In this document: piece after piece, positions 3,165 to 27,534 of the stretch | Layout of the letters: each line of letters starts with the position of its first letter | Numbering within the stretch: position 1 is the stretch's first letter | Origin: a virus | Lineage: Duplodnaviria > Heunggongvirae > Uroviricota > Caudoviricetes | IMG/VR virus record: IMGVR_UViG_2537561978_000007 | Length of the DNA: 37,256 bases | Direction: 5' to 3' (one strand) | Position numbers and translations under genes: made by a program | Notes under the pieces: generated by a model | Database searches by the model: none | The model's input: the letters and a program-made list of their open reading frames with translations, nothing else | Told to the model about the DNA's origin: nothing

Positions 3165-4265
3165 TCATTCCATTTCGAAATCATCAATCCTCACTTCAAG
3201 CTCCAGACTGGTCGTAAAACCGTTATCCGGGCTGACGGTATGTGTCAGAGTCGTAATGGTCCATTCCGCATCATCTATCGGCTGTTTAAAACCACTGACC
3301 TTCACAGGCATTTCCGTGTAGAGATCTGCCCGCCCTTCCGCCAGTTGTAGCGAGAATGACGCAACGCCACGTTGCAGGCGTTCCCACTGCATTTTCGCTG
3401 CCCGTTCGGCGTTACTCCGATTGGCATAGGTGCGATTGAGTACCAGCACGTTTTCATCCGTACCCACCAGGTAATCACCCTGCTTCACTTCCGGCTCTTT
3501 CTTCTGCTTCTTAGTTCTGCGCTTACGCTTCACCGTGGTGCTTTCTTTCTTCGCAGGTTCGCGGGTATGCAACCAGCTGGCAATGACGCCCGTGTAGGCT
3601 CCGCGATCTGCCAGGGTAAAGCGGTGACTGTCGCCGTCCTTGCGTGTGATAGTGATCACTGGCAGTGGTTTACCAGTGGCGCTTTTGCCCTGCCCCTGCC
3701 GGATGAATAACAGATTGCCATTTTTCACCGACGCGATGGCACCGTACTGTCGCGCCAGCCGCATCAGAAAACTGCCGTCACTCTCATTAGTCTGGTCTAT
3801 ATGCTCCACGGGCTTATCCGACAGGTCTTTACCCAGTGCCATCTTCAGCTTGTGACGCGCGGCTATTTCCTTAACCACTTCCCCGATGGTGGTGTTATGC
3901 CACGATTTTTCACGGCGGGTATTCAGGGTTTCCCGAAAATCAGCACTTCGCGCCCGGATAGTCAGGCGGTCCGGTGCGCCAGTGTGTTCAATCTCGTCCA
4001 CCGTGAATGCCCCTTTCGGGAAAAGCGGCTGCCCCTTCCAGCCCAGCGCCAGCGTAATGACCGCACCACGGCGCGGCAGCACGATTTTTCCGTCAGCGTC
4101 GTCCAGCTCCAGATCAAGCTGGTCCGCTTCAAAGCCCCGGTTATCCGTCAGCGTAAGCCCCATCAGGCGGTTGTCCAGCACAGTGGTGATATCCTTGCCT
4201 GCAATACTGATGCTGAATGCCGGAGTTTTGTTGCTTTTGTTAAGCAGTTCAGAGCTGAAATTCAC
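3165..4265 (-). CDS. D: Tail protein D (late control gene D)
   Basis: 366 aa; P2 gpD-like sequence and position between U and ogr. Confidence 0.9.
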   Translation of the reverse strand: MNFSSELLNKSNKTPAFSISIAGKDITTVLDNRLMGLTLTDNRGFEADQLDLELDDADGKIVLPRRGAVITLALGWKGQPLFPKGAFTVDEIEHTGAPDRLTIRARSADFRETLNTRREKSWHNTTIGEVVKEIAARHKLKMALGKDLSDKPVEHIDQTNESDGSFLMRLARQYGAIASVKNGNLLFIRQGQGKSATGKPLPVITITRKDGDSHRFTLADRGAYTGVIASWLHTREPAKKESTTVKRKRRTKKQKKEPEVKQGDYLVGTDENVLVLNRTYANRSNAERAAKMQWERLQRGVASFSLQLAEGRADLYTEMPVKVSGFKQPIDDAEWTITTLTHTVSPDNGFTTSLELEVRIDDFEME

Positions 4266-4747
4266 GACAGCAGCCCTCCAACCGTTTTACTGATATCGCT
4301 TAAAGCAGACGTTGCCGTGTCCTGCAGATTATTCAGTTGAGTACTGAGATCACCGAACATATCGGACAGGGATTCATCCACCCGTTTTAGCGACAGGGTG
4401 AACTCAATCCGGCGCGGCATACCGTCGCGGAAAAACTCCGTTTTAGTCTGATTCAGTCCCTCAATCACATACATGCCGTAAATCGTGCCGCTTCCTTCAA
4501 TCAGGGGCCATGCTTTCCCCTGTTCTGCCATCTGCTCCAGTGCCAGTAACGACAGCCTGCCGCCTGTTATCTCCGGCATAAGAACACCGGAAAGCGTCAG
4601 CATGTCGTTTTCCGGTCCCAGAAACTGCGTGGACGGACGACGGTTTACCCTGCTGTTTGCCGCATGTCGCCAGCTGCGTTGATACTGCAGCTCCTGATAC
4701 GGCACGGTGCGCAGCATAAACACGTACAATCCCAGCACCATCATCAT
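4262..4747 (-). CDS. U: Tail protein U
   Basis: 161 aa; 4-bp overlap with D start; P2 gpU-like. Confidence 0.85.
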   Translation of the reverse strand: MMMVLGLYVFMLRTVPYQELQYQRSWRHAANSRVNRRPSTQFLGPENDMLTLSGVLMPEITGGRLSLLALEQMAEQGKAWPLIEGSGTIYGMYVIEGLNQTKTEFFRDGMPRRIEFTLSLKRVDESLSDMFGDLSTQLNNLQDTATSALSDISKTVGGLLS

Positions 4748-10144: not shown

Positions 10145-10717
10145 TCAGGGAGATTCATTGCTCTTATTTGCCGGAAATTTTCTATAAATGGTAGAAACGC
10201 CTACATCAAAAATCAGTGCAATACGCTGTCTTGATTCTCCGGCCTCGAGTAAACGCCCAATCTGTGCCCACTGTTCGGTAGTCAACTTAGGACGGCGTCC
10301 ACCTACTCTGCCTTTAGCACGAGCTGCAGCCAGCCCTGCCCTGGTACGTTCAACTATCAGTTCGCGTTCCATTTCAGCCAGGGCACCCATGACATGAAAA
10401 AAGAAACTGCCCATTGGGGTACTGGTATCAATACTGTCAGTCAGACTTCGGAAATTCACGCCGCGCTGGCGCAACTCTTCTATCAGCGTAACAAGATGCC
10501 GCATACTGCGCCCCAACCTGTCCAGCTTCCAGACAACCAGTGTGTCACCTGCCGATAGTGTCCTGAGCAGTTTTTTAAGCCCCGGTCTGTCGGACTTAGT
10601 GCCACTGATTTTGTCCTCAAAAATCCGCTCACATCCCGCGCAGTTCAGCGCACTACGTTGCAAATCGGTGTTCTGGTCATTTGTTGACACGCGTACATAG
10701 CCAATAAGCATGATCAT
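10145..10717 (-). CDS. Serine-recombinase DNA invertase (Pin/Gin/Hin/Cin family)
   Basis: 190 aa; resolvase catalytic region IGYVRVSTNDQNTDLQ and C-terminal HTH; very similar to my recollection of e14 Pin; sits at the P2 Z/fun position beside an invertible segment; true start may be the Met at 10711. Confidence 0.9.
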   Translation of the reverse strand: MIMLIGYVRVSTNDQNTDLQRSALNCAGCERIFEDKISGTKSDRPGLKKLLRTLSAGDTLVVWKLDRLGRSMRHLVTLIEELRQRGVNFRSLTDSIDTSTPMGSFFFHVMGALAEMERELIVERTRAGLAAARAKGRVGGRRPKLTTEQWAQIGRLLEAGESRQRIALIFDVGVSTIYRKFPANKSNESP

Positions 10718-10766
10718 CTCCTTGAATAAAAACCGGGGATGATGCCAGTTAGTCGTAATCGCTGCA

Positions 10767-10792
10767 TTTTCTTAAACGTTGGTTTAGGAGAA
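10767..10792. repeat. Invertase crossover site (left), hix/gix-like 26-bp site
   Basis: Minus-strand reading TTCTCCTAAACC-AA-CGTTTAAGAAAA; 15-bp perfect inverted repeat TTGGTTTAGGAGAAG (10779-10793) with the site inside gene H. Confidence 0.6.
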
Positions 10793-11137
10793 GCGGCGAA
10801 AAGGGATGTGGGCACAGGAGATAATCAGATACCGGATATGTCTTTCTGGTCTTCCGCATCGGGTGGCGTTAATTTCCCTAATGGATTCCAGATGCGATTC
10901 GGTGCTATCGCTGGTAATGGTGGAAAATTATTTTCTACGCCATTTACAAATCAGTGCTATGGCATTGTTTTCGGACAAACATATGGAGCCAACTACTGGA
11001 TGTTCAGCCCGATGTACAGAGCATCTGATCTGAGTAATACCAGTTTTGCATTCATTAACAAAGCCTGGTCTGGAATTCCGGGGACAGGTGCTCAGGACGC
11101 TGGTGAATCAGTTTTTTATATTGCAGTAGGGTATTAA
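10781..11137 (+). CDS. Alternative (currently unexpressed) tail-fibre C-terminal variable segment
   Basis: Frame continues from the crossover-site motif LGLGE shared with gene H (H: AYLGLGEG; here VGLGEAAK); no independent start expected, becomes H C-terminus after inversion. Confidence 0.55.
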   Translation, partial: GLGEAAKRDVGTGDNQIPDMSFWSSASGGVNFPNGFQMRFGAIAGNGGKLFSTPFTNQCYGIVFGQTYGANYWMFSPMYRASDLSNTSFAFINKAWSGIPGTGAQDAGESVFYIAVGY

Positions 11138-11138
11138 T

Positions 11139-11582
11139 ATGGAAATGGTTTATAGCGCCTCAAATAATAGTTTTTTCGCTAAAAATGATGTGGCGAAATA
11201 TGAACAGGCCGGATGGGAACTTGCTGATATTGTCGAAGTGACATATGACACTTACCTGGAATTTATTGAAGACAGAACGTTGCAAGGGAAAGTACGCATC
11301 GCGGGTGATGATGGCCTTCCCACCTGGGGGGAAATTCCACCGCCAACTCATGAGGAACAAATTGCCGCAGCCGAACTGGAAAAGCAGCAATTGATTAATC
11401 AGGTCAACGAATACATATACAGTAAGCAATGGCCTGGTAAAGCAGCGATTGGTCGCCTGAAAGGTGAGGAACTGGCGCAATATAATTTGTGGCTGGATTA
11501 TCTGGACGCACTGGAACTGGTTGATACCTCCAGTGCTCCAGATATTGAATGGCCTACGCCTCCGGCAGTTCAGGCCAGATGA
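11139..11582 (+). CDS. Alternative tail-fibre assembly chaperone (Tfa/U'-like)
   Basis: 147 aa; C-terminal tfa motif ...DYLDALELVDTSSAPDIEWPTPP paralleling the minus-strand tfa (...DYIDAVTATDTSTAPDVIWPELP); 3' ends of the two tfa genes overlap convergently. Confidence 0.7.
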   Translation: MEMVYSASNNSFFAKNDVAKYEQAGWELADIVEVTYDTYLEFIEDRTLQGKVRIAGDDGLPTWGEIPPPTHEEQIAAAELEKQQLINQVNEYIYSKQWPGKAAIGRLKGEELAQYNLWLDYLDALELVDTSSAPDIEWPTPPAVQAR

Positions 11583-12156
11583 CGTCCGGCGCTGTGCTGG
11601 TATCTGTTGCCGTCACCGCATCAATGTAATCCAGCACAGCGTTAAGTCGGGTGTTTTCTGTCTGCGTCAGCTTCCGCCCGGCCTGCAATTTCAGTTGAAT
11701 CAGACTAATGGAAGCCATTGCAGTATCAATCAGTGACTGACGCTGTGCTTCTGCCGCGTCTAGTGTGGCGCTATGCTGTGCCTCAGTATCTGTCACCCAT
11801 TTCTCACCATCCCATTCATCGTATGGCGTTAACGGGGCGATAGTGGTTGTATTTTCAGGGTAATCACCTGGTGCTGTGATTTCTTTTGATTCTCCTGTTT
11901 CGGTGCTAAAAACGATTTCACCGCGATGGTCTGGCACATATTCCCATGAGTTAAAATCTGCAGAACGGCAGATTGCATAACCAGCTTTACATGTAACTGG
12001 TGAATCTAAACAGGAATATGCAGGGATACCGACACCAATGGCAAGATATTCATTTGAAGTAGAAATATATTCCCGAGTTTTACCATCATAGTTATAGACG
12101 GTAATATTCCCCGCCTTCGTGGCAATAATCTCGCTATTTAATACGGCGTTATCCAT
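11554..12156 (-). CDS. G: Tail-fibre assembly chaperone (gpG/Tfa), active orientation
   Basis: 200 aa; immediately downstream of H; conserved tfa C-terminus. Confidence 0.8.
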   Translation of the reverse strand: MDNAVLNSEIIATKAGNITVYNYDGKTREYISTSNEYLAIGVGIPAYSCLDSPVTCKAGYAICRSADFNSWEYVPDHRGEIVFSTETGESKEITAPGDYPENTTTIAPLTPYDEWDGEKWVTDTEAQHSATLDAAEAQRQSLIDTAMASISLIQLKLQAGRKLTQTENTRLNAVLDYIDAVTATDTSTAPDVIWPELPEA

Positions 12157-13619
12157 TATGCAGCCCTTACGATATAGTTAAATGCAATATTTCGTGGACG
12201 GGTTTCGCTTCCGCCATATGATGATGTAAATCCCGAATATGCCCGGTGTCCCGCATCCGTCGTATTAGCCCAGGAAGGACCGCTAGAAGTATAGATGACC
12301 CCATTGTAATCATGGCCGTGTGCCTCAATGCTCCCGTCCTGAGCAGACAGGAGAGTCCGTCCTGAATCAATTCCTCTTCCATCATCCCACCCACGAATGA
12401 ATTCGCCGCGTAAATCTGGCAATTTATTTGTCGGATAAACTTTTGCCAGTTCCGGATACTCTTCGGCAGAAAAAGCTGCACCGTTGCATTTCAGCCAGCC
12501 TGTTGGCGGTGTGACTGAAGGCCACGGAACAGGCACACCTACGGGTAATGCAGAGCCTTCTCCTAAACCAAGGTATGCGAGAAGACCAGCAACATCCTTT
12601 CCACTCAAATTAGTCAGCGTATTGTCCAGCGGTTGTTTACCTGCTAGCGCATTAAGCATTGTCGTGGCAAAGTTCGGGTCATTCCCCAGCGCCGCCGCCA
12701 GTTCGTTCAATGTATCCAGTGCCGCAGGTGCAGACCCCACCATTGCTGCAATCGCCGATTTCACAAAAGCCGTAGTGGCAATCTGTGTATTGTTAACCGA
12801 CTGTGCGGCAGTAGGGGCTGTTGGCGTTCCGGTGAGTGCCGGACTCGACAGCGGCGCTTTCAGTGCCAGCGCATTGTTAATGGTGGTACTGAATTTCGGA
12901 TCATTGTTAATGGCTGCGGCTATTTCTTTTAGCGTGTCCAGCGTGGCTGGCGCACCATTAATAAGGGCCGTCAGTGCCGCCTGAACAAACGCGGTGGTCG
13001 CAAGTTGCGTGGTATTATTCCCCGCCGCTGGCGTCGGCGCTTTGGGGGTTCCGGTAAATATCGGGCTGGCTTTTGGCGCATACTGTGAATGTGGGTCCGC
13101 TGCGGCAAGGTGTTTTGCCATTTGGTCATCCACATACACCTTCAGCTCCAGTGCCTTATCATCCACATACTTGCGAGTTGCCAGTACTACAGCAGGGTCG
13201 ATTTTCAGGGTGATATTGTCCGTACTGCTGGTAATCAGCACCATGCGCACGGTCTGGGTACGCCCGCTGCCTTCAGCCAGTTGCGGCTTATAGCTTTCCG
13301 GGCAGTTTCCCACGGCAATCAATACCCCGGACTCATCAAACAGGCCCACTTCACGTATCCACCAACCACCCTCATTTTCAGGGATCACCTGTTCAGCAAT
13401 AATCTGGCTGCTGTTCTGCGGGTCGATATAGAGCATATTCAGCGCAGCCCGGCGTTTCTCATTTACCAATGCTGTCTGCTTGGCGTCCGGCGTTGGCAAT
13501 GTTCCGCCGCCATCGCCGACCGCCATATGGGTAATTTTTAAAGGCACACCGAGCGCGGCGGCGCTGGCGAGTTTCGCCGCGCCAATATCCGTCAGCAGGG
13601 TATAAAATTTTGTGCTCAT
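12156..13619 (-). CDS. H: Tail fibre protein H (constant N-terminus plus currently linked variable C-terminus)
   Basis: 487 aa; P2 gpH-like N-terminus (MSTKFYTLLTDIGAAKLASAAALG...); crossover site embedded at codons for LGLGE. Confidence 0.85.
   Translation of the reverse strand: MSTKFYTLLTDIGAAKLASAAALGVPLKITHMAVGDGGGTLPTPDAKQTALVNEKRRAALNMLYIDPQNSSQIIAEQVIPENEGGWWIREVGLFDESGVLIAVGNCPESYKPQLAEGSGRTQTVRMVLITSSTDNITLKIDPAVVLATRKYVDDKALELKVYVDDQMAKHLAAADPHSQYAPKASPIFTGTPKAPTPAAGNNTTQLATTAFVQAALTALINGAPATLDTLKEIAAAINNDPKFSTTINNALALKAPLSSPALTGTPTAPTAAQSVNNTQIATTAFVKSAIAAMVGSAPAALDTLNELAAALGNDPNFATTMLNALAGKQPLDNTLTNLSGKDVAGLLAYLGLGEGSALPVGVPVPWPSVTPPTGWLKCNGAAFSAEEYPELAKVYPTNKLPDLRGEFIRGWDDGRGIDSGRTLLSAQDGSIEAHGHDYNGVIYTSSGPSWANTTDAGHRAYSGFTSSYGGSETRPRNIAFNYIVRAA
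12558..12583. repeat. Invertase crossover site (right), hix/gix-like 26-bp site inside gene H
   Basis: TTCTCCTAAACC-AA-GGTATGCGAGAA; same architecture as hixL (12-bp half sites around a 2-bp core). Confidence 0.6.
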
Positions 13620-15122: not shown

Positions 15123-15468
15123 TCTCTGCTCCTGTCGATACGGAAAGGGACACAGGTACACCGTTATTCCGCCGCCCGGTCAGCTCCACCACCATAGAAC
15201 CGTCAAAGTTGCTGTTGATGGTGATGGAATCCAGCGTCAGCCGTGGCTCCCAGCGACTCAGCGCCACATACACTGCCGACATGACCTGCAGGCGTAACGC
15301 CGGATTTTGTGGCTGGTCTATCAGTGCCGACAGCAGGGAACCATATTCCCGGCGGGCAATGCGGCTACCCTGCGGTGTCAGCAGAATGTCCCGCACCGAC
15401 TGGCGCAGATGGTCAATATCAGTAATAGCTTTGCCGCTGGTATTGTTCATCCCGCTATAAAGCGTCAT
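15109..15468 (-). CDS. W: Baseplate assembly protein W
   Basis: 119 aa; P2 gpW-like (GpW/gp25 lysozyme-like baseplate wedge). Confidence 0.85.
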   Translation of the reverse strand: MTLYSGMNNTSGKAITDIDHLRQSVRDILLTPQGSRIARREYGSLLSALIDQPQNPALRLQVMSAVYVALSRWEPRLTLDSITINSNFDGSMVVELTGRRNNGVPVSLSVSTGAENGSD

Positions 15469-16043
15469 ACCGGGCCTCCGGTTGTGTCGCCGCCTTTCAG
15501 GACGCCAGTATGCTGATGTGCATCAACCACAATTCCGTTAGAACTCATTGCACCGCCGCCCTGGGTAACACCACCATTGATCACTACTTCGCTGTTAATA
15601 CGCGTGCGGTCAGCCTCCAGCACAAACTCTCTGGTTTTCAGGGTGATGTTGTCAGCAGCCTCAATGACCATGGATTTGATGCCCCTGACATACCAGCGCC
15701 CGGTGGCTGGTTCGTATTCAAACCAGCCACCGTCAGGATGTTCTGTCACGCAGGCTTCCGCCGACGTCGACGGTGGTGCGAACTGATTCGAATAGACAGC
15801 GGGCAGCGCAAAGGCGGTTTCCAGATTTCCTCCCAGACTCAGCAGCACCACCTGCTCACCTTCCGATGGTCGCCACCATGTGCGGGCATTACCCGCGCGC
15901 AGCGTCAGCCAGTTAATCCAGTTGGTTTCAAGGTCGCCCGTTTTCACCCGACAAAGCCAGTTTTCCTTGTCCACTTCAGTGACTACCCCTGTGCGGATCA
16001 GGTTGGTGATAAGGCGCATGATTTCTGTGAGTTGTGTATTCAT
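15465..16043 (-). CDS. V: Baseplate spike/assembly protein V
   Basis: P2 gpV-like from MNTQLTEIMRL...; start chosen at internal Met, the upstream 22 codons of the ORF are AT-rich intergenic sequence. Confidence 0.8.
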   Translation of the reverse strand: MNTQLTEIMRLITNLIRTGVVTEVDKENWLCRVKTGDLETNWINWLTLRAGNARTWWRPSEGEQVVLLSLGGNLETAFALPAVYSNQFAPPSTSAEACVTEHPDGGWFEYEPATGRWYVRGIKSMVIEAADNITLKTREFVLEADRTRINSEVVINGGVTQGGGAMSSNGIVVDAHQHTGVLKGGDTTGGPV

Positions 16044-16136
16044 AAGATTATTTTTCCATGCTTTACACAACCTCTTCAAACAGCTTATTTTGTATAAAAG
16101 AAGATACAATTTTCTTTGAAAAGAAATAAACCCTCT

Positions 16137-16191
16137 GGTTAGAGGTTAGAGGTTAGAGGTTAGAGGTTAGAGGTTAGAGGTTAGAGGTTAG
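16137..16191. repeat. Perfect heptanucleotide tandem repeat (GGTTAGA) x7 plus a partial copy
   Basis: Read directly: ggttagaggttagaggttagaggttagaggttagaggttagaggttag; intergenic between gene V and the OLD-like cargo gene. Confidence 0.95.
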
Positions 16192-16199
16192 TAGAATAT

Positions 16200-16217
16200 C
16201 GCAGGGTTTCCCCTGCG
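16200..16217 (-). terminator. Short hairpin just downstream of the cargo-gene stop
   Basis: CGCAGGG-tttc-CCCTGCG, 9 bp after the stop at 16226; no strong U-tract, so weak. Confidence 0.3.
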
Positions 16218-16225
16218 ACCATTTA

Positions 16226-18184
16226 TCAATTAAACTTTACAGGTTTATCACTTATAAAAAAATTTTCAATTTTGGCAATCCACTCTGGCCTTTTCCGCTC
16301 ATTTCGCTCACAGATTGAAATATATTCCTTTGAAAAATCAAACTTAATTCCTTCACGGTCAAAAAAAGCATCAAGCGTTTTTTTGTTCTTGGGTGACAAA
16401 TCCATCGCAGCAAACGATGAATGTCTTTCATCTATCATAACATTACTATTAGGCAGCAATGCCTGAAGCTCAGGAAAACGTGAAGAAAATGATGTTAAAG
16501 CCTCTATAAACGATACAGGATTAAGACAATCCTCTATTTCTGTTGCAGGAGAAACTGGATTGGAAGAAATATCAACCAACTTCACTGAATCACCTACACT
16601 AACAATTCGCTTACAAACAACATGCGGCATAACTGGGGTATCATATGACACCAACTCTGAATCTGTATCGGTTAGTAAGAACACTTTTCCTTTGAGGTCT
16701 TTTTTGAACTCTTCATAAGAAGCTTCTAAATGCTTAAATATTTTTTTAACTTCACTAGCTCCCCCTACAGGCACAATCCTTAGCCTTTTATTTTCTACCA
16801 AGTCCTTTAGATAATGCGAAAGATATATTTTTTCTGTAGTACCCTCACAAATCAACCAATTGTAAGGTTTCTCAGCCAAACAGCTAGATATTATGGATTG
16901 TATAAGGTCATTTACACTTTTTATTTTTATATCAAATGGCATACCCGGGGAAGAGGTTTTTACTTTCTTCCTGACTTCTTCTCTATAACTGGCAAGATCA
17001 TATAATTCAAAATGATGAGTTGAATCTGTTTTAAGGATAGTTGTGGTACATCCATTTTCGACGGTTGGAAGATAGCCATACCAATGTGAAGTAAATATTA
17101 ATTGTTCACATATACCACTAATAGAATAGAGCTTTTCAAATTGTTCAAAACATGCAGACATATGAAGAGAACATTCTGGCTCATCAATTCCAATAATCAG
17201 ATTATCGCCATTTTCTCTATGATTGGTAAGAAACCCATATGCAATATCCATTATTGCACGTTGCTTCTCCCCTGAACTTAGCGAGCTAATTTCAATCCAA
17301 CCTGAATTCTGCTTTTTATTTAATTTCCTAACTTTGAAGAATGCTTCGATAATCAAATTATAAACATCTTTCTTTTTTAATCGCGATTGTCTCTCGCCAG
17401 ATGTTCTATAACCATATTCTTCAAGCTCCTCTTCAACACCATCCAGAAATTTGGCAAGCCCTGTATTGATTTGACTTATGGTTCTATCAGATATTCTATC
17501 TTTAATTATCTGCTCTAAAGACTCACCCATCAACTTTTGTACTTCACTTGTTTCTAGCTTCGTAAACGATTCAGAGTCTATATCCTTTGGAATATATATA
17601 TATTCATACTTATGGCGGACATGATGTAATAAATACCCAAAGTGCTTACTAAGCAACTCGCTCGAAACTTTATTATCGGGATTATCAACCTCCAAAAGTC
17701 GACATAAACTCTTCCCATTAAGAATCGAAATACTTACATCACCATCTTTCTCGACACCCAGAGGGATCAAAAAATAATCTTGGAGATTTAAATTTCTTTT
17801 TAATTTGTTAATATGTTCAAAAAACGTATTAATTATATTTCGTGTTGTTGGCGTCAATGTAACATCAGCATTACTATTGCTATATTCTAATACTAATTGC
17901 GTTAAGATTTCAGCTTTAGCATGATGATCTTCATGTAATTCCTCTCGCTTTATAAGATATAAAGGAACAATATGTGGAGAAGGTCTGTCACTGGAGGTTC
18001 TTTTAAATGAAGAATTAATATTCCATGGTTTGTTATTAATAAACGAATCTAAAGCCTCAAGAACAGAACTTTTGCCAATTCCATTGTTACCAACAATTCC
18101 ACAAAACTGACTTCCAGAAGATAACGGTATGTAATGATTTCCGTTGTATGTTTTAAAATACCTTAAAAAAATCCCTACTATCAT
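16226..18184 (-). CDS. OLD-family ABC-ATPase/Toprim nuclease (class-1 OLD-like or fused PARIS-like); anti-phage defence candidate
   Basis: 652 aa; Walker A GIVGNNGIGKSSVLEAL; ABC signature-like LSSGEKQ; Walker B/D-loop LIIGIDEPECSLH; H-loop TSH; C-terminal Toprim motifs ICEGTTE and LLTDTDSE; aligns by eye to P2 Old (LVGYNNAGKS, FIDEPELYLHP, LLVEGKTE, ADCDF); strongly AT-rich relative to flanking phage genes. Confidence 0.75.
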   Translation of the reverse strand: MIVGIFLRYFKTYNGNHYIPLSSGSQFCGIVGNNGIGKSSVLEALDSFINNKPWNINSSFKRTSSDRPSPHIVPLYLIKREELHEDHHAKAEILTQLVLEYSNSNADVTLTPTTRNIINTFFEHINKLKRNLNLQDYFLIPLGVEKDGDVSISILNGKSLCRLLEVDNPDNKVSSELLSKHFGYLLHHVRHKYEYIYIPKDIDSESFTKLETSEVQKLMGESLEQIIKDRISDRTISQINTGLAKFLDGVEEELEEYGYRTSGERQSRLKKKDVYNLIIEAFFKVRKLNKKQNSGWIEISSLSSGEKQRAIMDIAYGFLTNHRENGDNLIIGIDEPECSLHMSACFEQFEKLYSISGICEQLIFTSHWYGYLPTVENGCTTTILKTDSTHHFELYDLASYREEVRKKVKTSSPGMPFDIKIKSVNDLIQSIISSCLAEKPYNWLICEGTTEKIYLSHYLKDLVENKRLRIVPVGGASEVKKIFKHLEASYEEFKKDLKGKVFLLTDTDSELVSYDTPVMPHVVCKRIVSVGDSVKLVDISSNPVSPATEIEDCLNPVSFIEALTSFSSRFPELQALLPNSNVMIDERHSSFAAMDLSPKNKKTLDAFFDREGIKFDFSKEYISICERNERKRPEWIAKIENFFISDKPVKFN

Positions 18185-18329
18185 AAAATTAGCTCCATTA
18201 GTGAGGTGAAGACATTAAAGTACAACAAGATTAATCTCAAAAAAAGAGCTTTATAGTATATTCAAGCAAGGTATCTTATGTAGAACGATAAAGTCTCCCT
18301 CCACTAATTCTCTTAACCCACTATTTACT

Positions 18330-18767
18330 TTAGCGTTTTAAGTAAACACCCAAGTTCAAGTTACTAATATCCTTAGTAAATCCTAAAAGCCTTCTCTCAG
18401 GGTACTGTACTTTTAAACCTCTTCGACTAACACGGTCACGCAGTCCATAGTGGTGTACACAGGCGATGCGCTGGACTTTTCCATCAAAATACACGCAGGC
18501 ATAATCCGCTGTGGCGGCAGTTTTCAGGTATTTATTAGTGCGCAATTTGGCGAACATCTGGCGTTTGATGCGCCCCTTCTTACTGCGGGCTGCTACCCGG
18601 CGCGGCTCAAAGCCGCTGCCATCAGGGTTAAGCTGCAGCCTGATATTCTTCTGCTGATTGCGGCGCAACTCCTGCGCCAGTTCCCGCATCATACGCTGGC
18701 GTGTGGCAGGCTCCAGATTCGCCAGCAAGGCCGCCAGCCACTCATCCACCTTCTGCAGTTCAGCCAC
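18330..18767 (-). CDS. S: Tail completion protein S
   Basis: 145 aa; P2 gpS-like; overlaps R by 8 bp. Confidence 0.8.
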   Translation of the reverse strand: MAELQKVDEWLAALLANLEPATRQRMMRELAQELRRNQQKNIRLQLNPDGSGFEPRRVAARSKKGRIKRQMFAKLRTNKYLKTAATADYACVYFDGKVQRIACVHHYGLRDRVSRRGLKVQYPERRLLGFTKDISNLNLGVYLKR

Positions 18768-26037: not shown

Positions 26038-27062
26038 TGGGAAAGAGTAAGAAGAACCGCGCTGCGTCGACGAACCAGCTCCAGCATAAAAGCCAGACTT
26101 CAGCCGAAGCATTCAGCTTCGGTGATCCCGTTCCTGTTCTGGACCGCCGTGAACTGCTGGACTATGTGGAATGCGTACAGACAGATCGCTGGTATGAGCC
26201 GCCCGTCAGCTTTGACGGACTGGCGCGCACCTTCCGCGCCGCCGTGCATCACAGTTCTCCGATTGCAGTAAAGTGCAACATTCTGACCAGTACCTATATC
26301 CCTCATCCGCTGCTCAGCCAGCAGGCTTTTTCGCGTTTTGTGCAGGACTATCTGGTATTTGGTAACGCCTACCTGGAGAAACGCACGAACCGATTCGGTG
26401 AAGTTATCGCCCTTGATCCTGCGCTGGCAAAATACACCCGACGCGGGTTAGACCTGGATACCTACTGGTTTGTGCAATACGGTATGACAACCCAGCCGTA
26501 TCAGTTCACGAAAGGCAGCATTTTTCATCTGATGGAACCGGACATCAACCAGGAGATCTACGGCCTGCCCGGCTATCTTTCTGCCATTCCGTCAGCCCTG
26601 CTCAATAAGTCCGCCACGCTGTTCCGCCGCAAGTATTACATCAACGGCAGCCATGCAGGCTTCATCATGTATATGACCGATGCCGCGCAGAATCAGGAGG
26701 ATGTGAACAATCTCCGCAACGCGATGAAAAGTGCCAAAGGTCCTGGTAACTTCCGTAACCTGTTTATGTACTCGCCTAACGGTAAAAAGGACGGGCTTCA
26801 GATTATCCCGTTGTCAGAAGTGGCGGCGAAGGATGAGTTCCTGAATATCAAGAACGTGAGCCGGGACGACATGATGGCGGCGCATCGTGTGCCGCCACAA
26901 ATGATGGGGATAATGCCTAATAATGTTGGAGGGTTTGGGGATGTGGAGAAGGCGAGTAAGGTTTTTGTTAGAAATGAACTAATTCCACTCCAAAAAAGAA
27001 TAATGGAAGTTAATGAATGGTTAGGTGAGAAAACTATCCGATTTCAGCATTATGATTTATAA
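26034..27062 (+). CDS. Q: Portal protein Q
   Basis: 342 aa; P2 gpQ-like; 4-bp overlap with P. Confidence 0.9.
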   Translation: MMGKSKKNRAASTNQLQHKSQTSAEAFSFGDPVPVLDRRELLDYVECVQTDRWYEPPVSFDGLARTFRAAVHHSSPIAVKCNILTSTYIPHPLLSQQAFSRFVQDYLVFGNAYLEKRTNRFGEVIALDPALAKYTRRGLDLDTYWFVQYGMTTQPYQFTKGSIFHLMEPDINQEIYGLPGYLSAIPSALLNKSATLFRRKYYINGSHAGFIMYMTDAAQNQEDVNNLRNAMKSAKGPGNFRNLFMYSPNGKKDGLQIIPLSEVAAKDEFLNIKNVSRDDMMAAHRVPPQMMGIMPNNVGGFGDVEKASKVFVRNELIPLQKRIMEVNEWLGEKTIRFQHYDL

Positions 27063-27087: not shown

Positions 27088-27534
27088 CTAAGATTCTGTC
27101 GTTGTCTCTAATGAACACCAAGCATTAATTCCCATTTTTGAGACAGCTATCAACATAATTACTACAGCTGGAGCAATAAATGTTGCTGTTGCCCCCAAAG
27201 AACCCGCAATTGCCGAAGAGATCACCCCTACAAAGTATGTTTTAACATCACCAGTCAGTGCTCCTAAACATTCCCTCTCCTCTGCATATTTATCACCTCC
27301 ACATACAAAAGCCTTAAACTCTAATTTAAACTGCTCAACAAACGCTTTTCTTCCCGGCATTTTTGAATTATCACCGCCAAATTGAGCAACTGAACTTGGG
27401 CCAGATGCAGTTAGCCATAGCTCAAGAGCCTTTTCTTCATCGCCATTTTCGAGAAAATTCCTGACAGATGAAGATTGATACGTTTTTAAAGTGGACAACC
27501 AAGACTCAGCATCTTCATTTGGTATAGCAATCAT
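27088..27534 (-). CDS. Small tail-anchored membrane protein, unknown function (cargo gene 2 of the protease cassette)
   Basis: 148 aa; soluble acidic N-terminus, C-terminal about 40-residue hydrophobic Gly/Ala-rich hairpin (YFVGVISSAIAGSLGATATFIAPAVVIMLIAV); ATGA overlap with upstream protease gene; AT-rich. Confidence 0.6.
   Translation of the reverse strand: MIAIPNEDAESWLSTLKTYQSSSVRNFLENGDEEKALELWLTASGPSSVAQFGGDNSKMPGRKAFVEQFKLEFKAFVCGGDKYAEERECLGALTGDVKTYFVGVISSAIAGSLGATATFIAPAVVIMLIAVSKMGINAWCSLETTTES

Follow-up and report, generated by a model that had tools for sequence, protein, structure and literature searches.

What is a perfect heptamer repeat doing between a cargo gene and the baseplate operon of a P2-like prophage, and does its length matter to either of them? 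The question is raised by a viral sequence of 37,256 nucleotides, referred to here as the window, in which a run of GGTTAGA units stands upstream of gene V. The original prediction, made from the letters of this sequence, offered three readings of the repeat: an insertion scar marking the boundary of the islet, an array of protein-binding sites, or a tract prone to slipped-strand events that alters the spacing and expression of the downstream operon. These readings are weighed below, together with one that involves transcription termination by Rho.

Identity and position of the array

The window is a P2/186-like prophage, and several E. coli chromosomes carry it in complete form. Around the array, the minus strand encodes the late genes. 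In the direction of transcription the order is S, cargo gene, hairpin 1, array, hairpin 2 with a U-rich tail, TGT-N12-ACA, and V:

18767 to 18330, minus strand: gene S, the 5' neighbour of the cargo gene
16226 to 18184, minus strand: cargo gene for a 652-residue OLD-family ABC-type ATPase with TOPRIM (Pfam AAA_15 and OLD-like_TOPRIM)
16198 to 16219, minus strand: hairpin 1, a 9-bp stem with a GAAA loop, 6 nt past the cargo stop codon and without a proper U tract
16137 to 16191, minus strand: heptamer microsatellite, (GGTTAGA)x7 plus GGTTAG on the plus strand, (AACCTCT)x7 plus AACC on the sense (minus) strand
16118 to 16145, minus strand: weak hairpin 2, CCUCU-AACC-AGAGG, whose 5' arm is the last repeat unit, with a U-rich tail (GUUUAUUUCUUUUC)
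16091 to 16108, minus strand: TGT-N12-ACA dyad, the Ogr/B-type activator box of P_V, centred 56.5 nt upstream of the V ATG
15465 to 16043, minus strand: gene V, baseplate spike (Phage_base_V and Apex), with its ATG at 16043, first gene of the late operon V-W-J-I-H-G
about 16060 to 18417: variable (cargo) module of the S-V slot, comprising the cargo promoter region, the cargo gene, the hairpin, the array and the P_V activator box

Tandem Repeats Finder places the repeat at 16137-16191, as originally predicted, and describes it as a perfect (GGTTAGA)x7.86 array (period 7, 7.9 copies, 100% matches, no indels, score 110). No second array scoring above 40 was found in the 37-kb window. Given the base composition, the chance expectation for perfect period-7 arrays as long as this one is about 5e-25; a short unit repeated head-to-tail so far beyond chance is the first mark of a variable-number tandem repeat (VNTR). 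GGTTAGA occurs 8 times in the window, compared with 2.66 +/- 1.53 in shuffled sequences, and seven of the eight occurrences belong to the array, the other being an isolated copy elsewhere in the prophage. The short hairpin said to precede the array was also recovered, with its 9-bp stem and GAAA loop at 16219..16198, directly 5' of the repeat on the transcribed strand.

No open reading frame of at least 40 codons crosses the array. The units on the plus strand resemble a Shine-Dalgarno sequence (GAGGT), and no start codon lies downstream of them. A known RNA family was considered and dropped: no Rfam family was found for the array region, the sole match, to rliE, being at chance level (21.7 bits against a gathering score of 90, E=0.26). 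A literature search for the repeat sequence matched only an unrelated zebrafish paper.

The heptamer is widespread as a sequence. Arrays of at least 4 GGTTAGA units are present in more than 120 genomes of unrelated phyla, and three consecutive units occur in 27 viral contigs, compared with 9, 15 and 56 for three composition-matched control heptamers. Only one other array-bearing locus (L143) has the P2/cargo context in common with the window. A special motif shared across phyla was rejected, as the controls are equally common; GGTTAGA arrays are generic microsatellites. Some are far longer than the one described here: a very long array occupies 4146-4313 and beyond in an IMG/VR contig (L147; 33 matches of 21 nt), and others are found in Mucilaginibacter (L031 6376-6599; 8 x 28 nt) and in an Acidobacteriaceae metagenome-assembled genome (L065 3040-3235; 7 x 28 nt).

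Variation in copy number among near-identical prophages

Comparison of related prophages had been proposed as a check for length polymorphism, and such polymorphism was found. The 501 bp around the array were used as a megablast query against 5,426 complete E. coli genomes. The whole junction is present in 14 of them, with match lengths of 487, 494, 501, 508 or 515 bp. In 13 genomes, in which the units were counted directly, the array has 5, 6, 7, 8 or 9 full sense-strand units, all copies are perfect, and the 120-bp flanks on either side are identical to those of the window; in the fourteenth carrier, H50, the array is known from the match length only. Six further E. coli loci, reached through a second common variant of the cargo protein, contain 3, 5, 6, 6, 9 and 11 units, and a copy in IMG/VR contains 6. 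The two common protein variants are listed on 469 and 212 public contigs. The range across the 22 E. coli loci is therefore 3-11 units, in exact 7-bp steps and between identical flanks, which strongly supports the view of the repeat as a slipped-strand-prone tract.

The flanks provide a measure of how fast these changes occur. Ten prophages, the window included, have 0 SNPs over a flank of 8.5 kb (2.5 kb left and 6 kb right of the array) and carry four different alleles; an eleventh, with 1 SNP in the same 8.5 kb, carries a fifth. Five alleles are thus separated by 0-1 SNP per 8.5 kb, and differences of whole units among near-identical sequences are the second mark of a VNTR. In another lineage, about 100 SNPs from that of the window, two prophages (L006 and L012) are set apart by a single SNP and a single unit. 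Since four alleles coexist at zero flank SNPs, the slippage rate must lie far above the rate of point substitution. The copy numbers were taken from public assemblies, and those from nanopore-only assemblies are possibly off by one unit; the exact 7-bp steps and the zero changes in the flanks argue that the alleles are real. The array is an example, previously undescribed, of a prophage-borne VNTR.

Five Logan contigs (L243, L257, L259, L260 and L261), assembled from short reads, end within orthologous arrays once 4 units have been read, an effect to be expected when a repeat exceeds the k-mer of the assembler. The array is a recurrent break point of such assemblies, and copy numbers from them are unusable.

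As a highly polymorphic marker, the repeat distinguishes prophages of extra-intestinal and avian pathogenic E. coli that are identical in other respects. Its practical value is modest. The source records of the array-bearing isolates name blood, CSF and poultry.

Another variable segment was observed in the same prophages. At about 10145-12210 of the window (L002 246-2312 compared with L004 246-2257), adjoining a gene annotated as 'recombinase family protein', the tail-fibre C-terminus and assembly genes lie in opposite orientations among otherwise identical prophages. This inversion looks like a host-range switch of the Cin/Gin type.

The array as part of a cargo module

The cargo protein carries the RefSeq label 'AAA family ATPase', and its best PADLOC matches are the PARIS ATPase (AriA) and Old. 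Judged from these similarities it is an OLD-family ATPase-nuclease, placed at the family level only and not assignable to a single named system. The gene has a G+C content of 33.7%, compared with about 55% in the flanking phage genes. The module is proposed to be horizontally acquired, a defence-gene type of the OLD family inserted in the S-V slot.

The array and this gene occur together. The cargo gene is present in exactly 14 of the 5,426 E. coli genomes, each time with the array. About 960 genomes whose gene V is homologous but whose cargo differs have no array, their similarity to the window ending at 16051. Compared with K_EC180, which carries an FRG-domain cargo on the opposite strand, similarity extends on the V side to 16059 and begins again at 18418, within the 3'-terminal part of S. 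The V-side edge of the module is therefore placed at 16051-16059. The array had been assigned to the junction between cargo and backbone; it is near this junction but not at it, lying about 78-86 bp away and inside the module. The activator box of P_V also falls within the swapped segment. On the other side, the module edge lies within the last ~88 nt of gene S (18330-18417), and as similarity resumes only at 18418, an exchange of cargo replaces the C-terminus of the S protein as well. Cargo modules exchanged at the P2 S-V slot hence come with an activator box and a 3' tail of their own.

A search beside gene V in other P2-like phages, which the original prediction had also suggested, covered 76 P2-like loci from IMG/VR with 34 distinct V-upstream sequence types (L268-L347, 150 nt upstream). 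Within 400 bp upstream of V, the contig with this cargo was the only one to show a perfect tandem repeat. The repeat is tied to the cargo module and not to the S-V slot. Rather than being invariant and shared with phages that lack the cargo, the array is variable and occurs only with this cargo gene.

These results bear directly on the array as an insertion scar or recombination footprint at the islet boundary. Its distance of only ~80 bp from the V-side end of the variable segment agrees with such an origin. Against it, the array is internal to the module, the locus is kept in orthologous modules across genera, and other cargo types occupy the S-V slot without any array. No direct or inverted repeats were found flanking the module, and a search that tolerated 3 mismatches per 14 nt gave no second copy of the repeat, either at the S-side boundary or in any other place. 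The locus does not have the form of a scar or of a target-site duplication, and this reading is essentially refuted.

In one avian pathogenic isolate, APEC 16-1068, the cargo gene (L001 20327-22284, equivalent to 16226-18184 of the window) is annotated as two CDS next to an intact array. The match of 2103 nt instead of 2104 indicates a 1-nt frameshift, reflecting either pseudogenisation of the defence gene or an error in the sequencing.

Orthologous arrays in other genera

Modules with related cargo genes were compared across genera, cargo identities being those to the window:

Escherichia coli, 22 loci: cargo gene at least 99.7% identical in nucleotides in the 14 complete genomes; after the hairpin, (AACCTCT)x3-11
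Cronobacter, Enterobacter bugandensis and two IMG/VR contigs: cargo 91% identical in amino acids and about 85% in nucleotides; AACCTCT followed by (GCCTCT)x5-14, interrupted in one allele
Klebsiella variicola: cargo about 85% identical in nucleotides; (AGCCTCT)x16 followed by (AACCTCT)x4
L244 and L245: cargo 84% identical in amino acids; no array; a pyrimidine-rich 30-nt spacer before the activator box
L252: cargo 59% identical in amino acids; no array; a strong hairpin
Pantoea: cargo 73-75% identical in amino acids; chromosomal; downstream DNA unrelated

In the Cronobacter, Enterobacter and Klebsiella prophages the module occupies the same S-V slot. Flank identity among the three array types is 75-90%, which identifies the array sites as orthologous. 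The simplest history would be that of a single microsatellite locus turned over by point mutation and slippage, from AACCTCT through AGCCTCT to GCCTCT, and the observed series of units is the outcome expected from such turnover. It offers a natural series in which one microsatellite changes its unit and its period (7 to 6 bp) while fixed at one site. An array with a CCTCT core was found in every one of about 35 sampled loci of the clade, in four genera, over about 15% nucleotide divergence of the neighbouring gene and with 3-20 units. A tandem array is absent from the 84% relative, the 59% relative, P2 (orf30) and 33 other V-upstream sequence types. The persistence of the array appears to exceed that of a symmetric neutral slippage walk, which hints at an expansion bias or at selection on length or composition.

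The homologues in Pantoea agglomerans and P. stewartii (L246, L247) are single chromosomal genes, with no prophage around them. Their neighbours are housekeeping genes (the phn operon; ars genes), and no repeat lies downstream.

The same series speaks to the protein-binding reading, according to which the units would be tandem iteron-like sites for a DNA-binding protein of the phage or the host. Such arrangements are known: the omega repressor of pSM19035 binds heptad operators, and P2 has Cox boxes. The constancy of the CCTCT core across genera and the closeness of the array to a regulated promoter fit this idea. The unit nevertheless varies (AA, AG or G before CCTCT), the change of period from 7 to 6 bp shifts the helical phasing, and the copy number ranges from 3 to 20, so that neither unit, period nor number is conserved among orthologous modules, as would be expected of relatives sharing a binding protein. 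Moreover, the array is absent from 33 other P2-like V-upstream types despite shared regulators, and elsewhere in the prophage the heptamer is found as one isolated copy. A binding array is thus disfavoured and must be considered very improbable.

Geometry of the gene V promoter

An effect of the repeat on the baseplate operon would depend on its position relative to P_V. In the P2 reference record, the activator-binding site of P_V is annotated at 10239-10266, and transcription of the V operon starts at the first base of the V CDS. The dyad and the V ATG of the window align without gaps with these annotated positions. A TGT-N12-ACA dyad is centred 54.5-57.5 nt from the V ATG in 76 of the 76 P2-like loci (mode 55.5, window 56.5), and the spacing is kept in all 34 V-upstream types though the surrounding sequence is swapped with the cargo. 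This pattern matches the published consensus of the four P2 late promoters (PMC3931495). The element at 16091-16108 is thus a late-promoter box of the Ogr/B type, and the array, which spans about -94 to -148, lies outside it and wholly upstream of its centre at -56.5. Located beyond the activator box, the array cannot alter the spacing between box and promoter through its copy number, and the annotated start of the V mRNA at the first CDS base in P2 leaves no 5' UTR in which it could act. The claim that the repeat changes the spacing of the baseplate-operon promoter finds no support in this canonical arrangement. The constancy of the box position across the V-upstream types is consistent with conservation of a leaderless V mRNA, as annotated in P2.

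A three-codon mini-ORF, ATGGAAAAATAA, preceded by AAGAGG, occupies 16048-16059 (minus strand), in the interval that separates the activator box from the V ATG. The Enterobacter type retains it (ATGGGAAAATAA), and in the Klebsiella type it is without a stop codon; the missing stop codon suggests that the mini-ORF is probably fortuitous.

A regulatory role could take another form. As a contingency locus of the phase-variable or rheostat type, the array would tune gene V and the late operon, or the cargo gene, through its copy number. It is a hypermutable and perfectly pure simple sequence repeat (SSR), with many alleles among near-clonal prophages, and it is intergenic, upstream of an operon and long-persisting. 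The TAAA repeats upstream of nadA in Neisseria are a parallel among contingency SSRs. In Haemophilus influenzae, the 7-bp repeats of hmw1A and hmw2A confer SSR-dependent graded expression, and the graded effects of heptamers in a promoter region have been documented for hmw1A (PMC8262952, PMC12721329). The repeat of the window, however, lies in none of the positions typical of phase-variable SSRs: it is neither in an ORF, nor between the elements of a core promoter, nor in a 5' UTR, nor in the gap between activator and promoter. With a canonical activator box, the array beyond it at -94 to -148 and a P2 V mRNA starting at the ATG, nothing recognisable remains upstream of the array but the hairpin of the previous gene. 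Deletion analyses from the Christie laboratory reportedly showed that sequence beyond about -70 is dispensable for P2 late promoters. With respect to the cargo gene, the array is located 3' of both the stop codon and the hairpin. A contingency function appears improbable.

Hairpins and the question of termination

The array is predicted to be unpaired in both the minimum free energy (MFE) and the centroid structures, between hairpins 1 and 2. Hairpin 1, whose conserved stem recurs with other loops in the modules of Enterobacter, Cronobacter and Klebsiella, is probably a transcript-end or 3'-protective hairpin of the cargo gene. Hairpin 2, with 5 bp, was flagged as terminator-like by a pattern scan, and its folding energy is no better than that of shuffled sequences. 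As to intrinsic termination, hairpin 1 is stable and has no U tract, and hairpin 2 is weak and has a U-rich tail. A hairpin of the last unit forms in all three array types, in none of them with an energy better than shuffled sequence. A co-varying terminator hairpin, formed by the last unit and the sequence downstream, was not adopted in view of these energies and was left as weak evidence. Anti-Shine-Dalgarno pairing of CCUCU in the 3' UTR with the cargo ribosome-binding site was dropped as well, as at most 4-5 base pairs could form, judged from the sequence and not computed.

The composition of the sense strand points to a possible further role, in insulation. The (AACCUCU)n tract in the 3' tail of the cargo transcript could serve as a rut-like site on which Rho loads, and Rho would then stop read-through into the late V operon, with termination at weak hairpin 2 and the U-rich region downstream of the array. 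Slippage would build and resize the tract, and selection for termination would offset a contraction bias. We regard this as unlikely. Rut sites are described by an excess of C over G across ~78 nt, in unstructured and untranslated RNA with a downstream pause hairpin (PMC6407284). Several properties of the array agree with this description. The tract lies past the stop codon of the cargo gene and is predicted to be unpaired, flanked by a hairpin without a U tract and a weak one with a U-rich tail. C exceeds G over ~78 nt, the best such stretch having C=27 and G=4, a ratio of 6.8, and this ratio grows with the number of units. Only 0.08% of 74,358 stretches of 78 nt on both strands lie above a C/G of 5, which places the array in about the top 0.1%. 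Its G-free sense run of 64 nt is the longest run free of any single base in the window, and in the sense orientation each of the three unit variants has 3 C per unit and none has more than 1 G.

The arrangement of genes points in the same direction. A co-oriented gene that is expressed in the lysogen and lies upstream of the late operon has an obvious need for termination, and the cargo gene of the window is co-oriented in this way; P2 orf30 and the FRG cargo of K_EC180 lie on the opposite strand and thereby avoid read-through. In addition, the 59% relative has a strong hairpin in place of the array, and persistence of the array over ~15% divergence suggests selection.

Other observations weigh against Rho. 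The rut length usually quoted is 70-80 nt, and many alleles (3-6 units, with G-free runs of 36-57 nt) fall below it. A strict spacing of C every 11-13 nt is not present, as no chain of six C's was found in any allele with 0-11 units; a spacing of 14 nt, or two units, is present trivially. The C/G skew follows automatically from the unit, and the three unit variants share ancestry and hence are not independent. The 84% relative manages with a spacer of 30 nt. The hairpins downstream are weak, with energies no better than shuffles, and the cargo promoter is represented by a chance-level consensus match only. Criteria of the RhoTermPredict type are, furthermore, very unspecific, giving 23,930 predictions in K-12 (PMC6407284).

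A fuller version would make the array an 'evolvable terminator': a self-resizing Rho-entry tract that insulates a constitutive defence gene from the late tail operon and is selected across genera. Slippage would then continually produce alleles differing in read-through, and the tract would outlive the turnover of its units (AACCTCT, AGCCTCT, GCCTCT). This version is less likely still. If it were true, the locus would represent an SSR of the contingency type that works at a gene's 3' end, through transcription termination and not through a promoter or a reading frame; length-tunable Rho entry would then insulate a defence gene from phage late genes by unusual means.

High C/G ratios were also observed in the A-Q hotspot, at 26899-26976 (78 nt, C/G 9.7 on the minus-strand RNA) and at 27263-27340 (C/G 8.7 on the plus-strand RNA). 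Both stretches are free of repeats; they are located at the portal gene's 3' end and within the low-GC accessory gene next to it.

A probable tolerated, slippage-driven repeat

The reading that we prefer, with a probability of roughly 0.55, is that of a slippage-driven microsatellite in one of the prophage's least constrained places, where all lengths are tolerated. Replication slippage, the presumed mechanism, would create the array and keep its length in flux; heptamer loops are too large for mismatch repair. The array would occupy the non-coding tail of the cargo module, 3' of the cargo hairpin and 5' of every recognised element of P_V, and the gain or loss of units would resize only an unstructured, G-free and C-rich spacer, leaving promoter geometry and reading frames unaffected. 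Alleles of 3-11 units, and of up to 20 in Klebsiella, would all be tolerated because only the length of a spacer changes. The array is probably such a tolerated spacer rather than a switch, and we infer that its length has little or no effect on the expression of gene V or of the cargo gene.

Comparison with known systems

The locus and P2 have the S-V slot in common, as well as a TGT-N12-ACA box at a distance of ~55 nt from the V ATG, and the cargo of the window is of the defence type, as reported for the 'within the tail genes' hotspot (PMC13586616). Two papers on P2 hotspots make no mention of repeats, terminators or orf30/gpS/gpV at the S-V slot. P2 itself differs in having no tandem repeat, orf30 on the opposite strand and a terminator after S, whereas the cargo of the window is co-oriented with the late genes.

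With rut sites the array has in common a C-rich, G-poor and untranslated RNA, predicted to be unstructured, and a potential pause hairpin after it (PMC6407284). It differs from them as a hypervariable tandem repeat in which many alleles are shorter than 70-80 nt and the C spacing of 11-13 nt is missing.

The resemblance to the hmw1A/hmw2A repeats lies in a heptanucleotide SSR that is intergenic, upstream of an operon and represented by many natural alleles. The hmw repeats, however, are located in the promoter region or 5' UTR of the gene they control (PMC8262952, PMC12721329), whereas the array described here lies upstream of the activator box of an operon whose mRNA is annotated from the ATG.

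With bacterial loci of the VNTR/MLVA type, which are short intergenic repeats varying through slippage, the array shares a perfect head-to-tail unit, alleles differing by whole units, conserved flanks and breaks in short-read assemblies. In contrast to these, it is carried on a mobile defence-gene module in a prophage and not at a chromosomal core locus, and its orthologous copies in other genera have been turned over to another unit, even to one of period 6.
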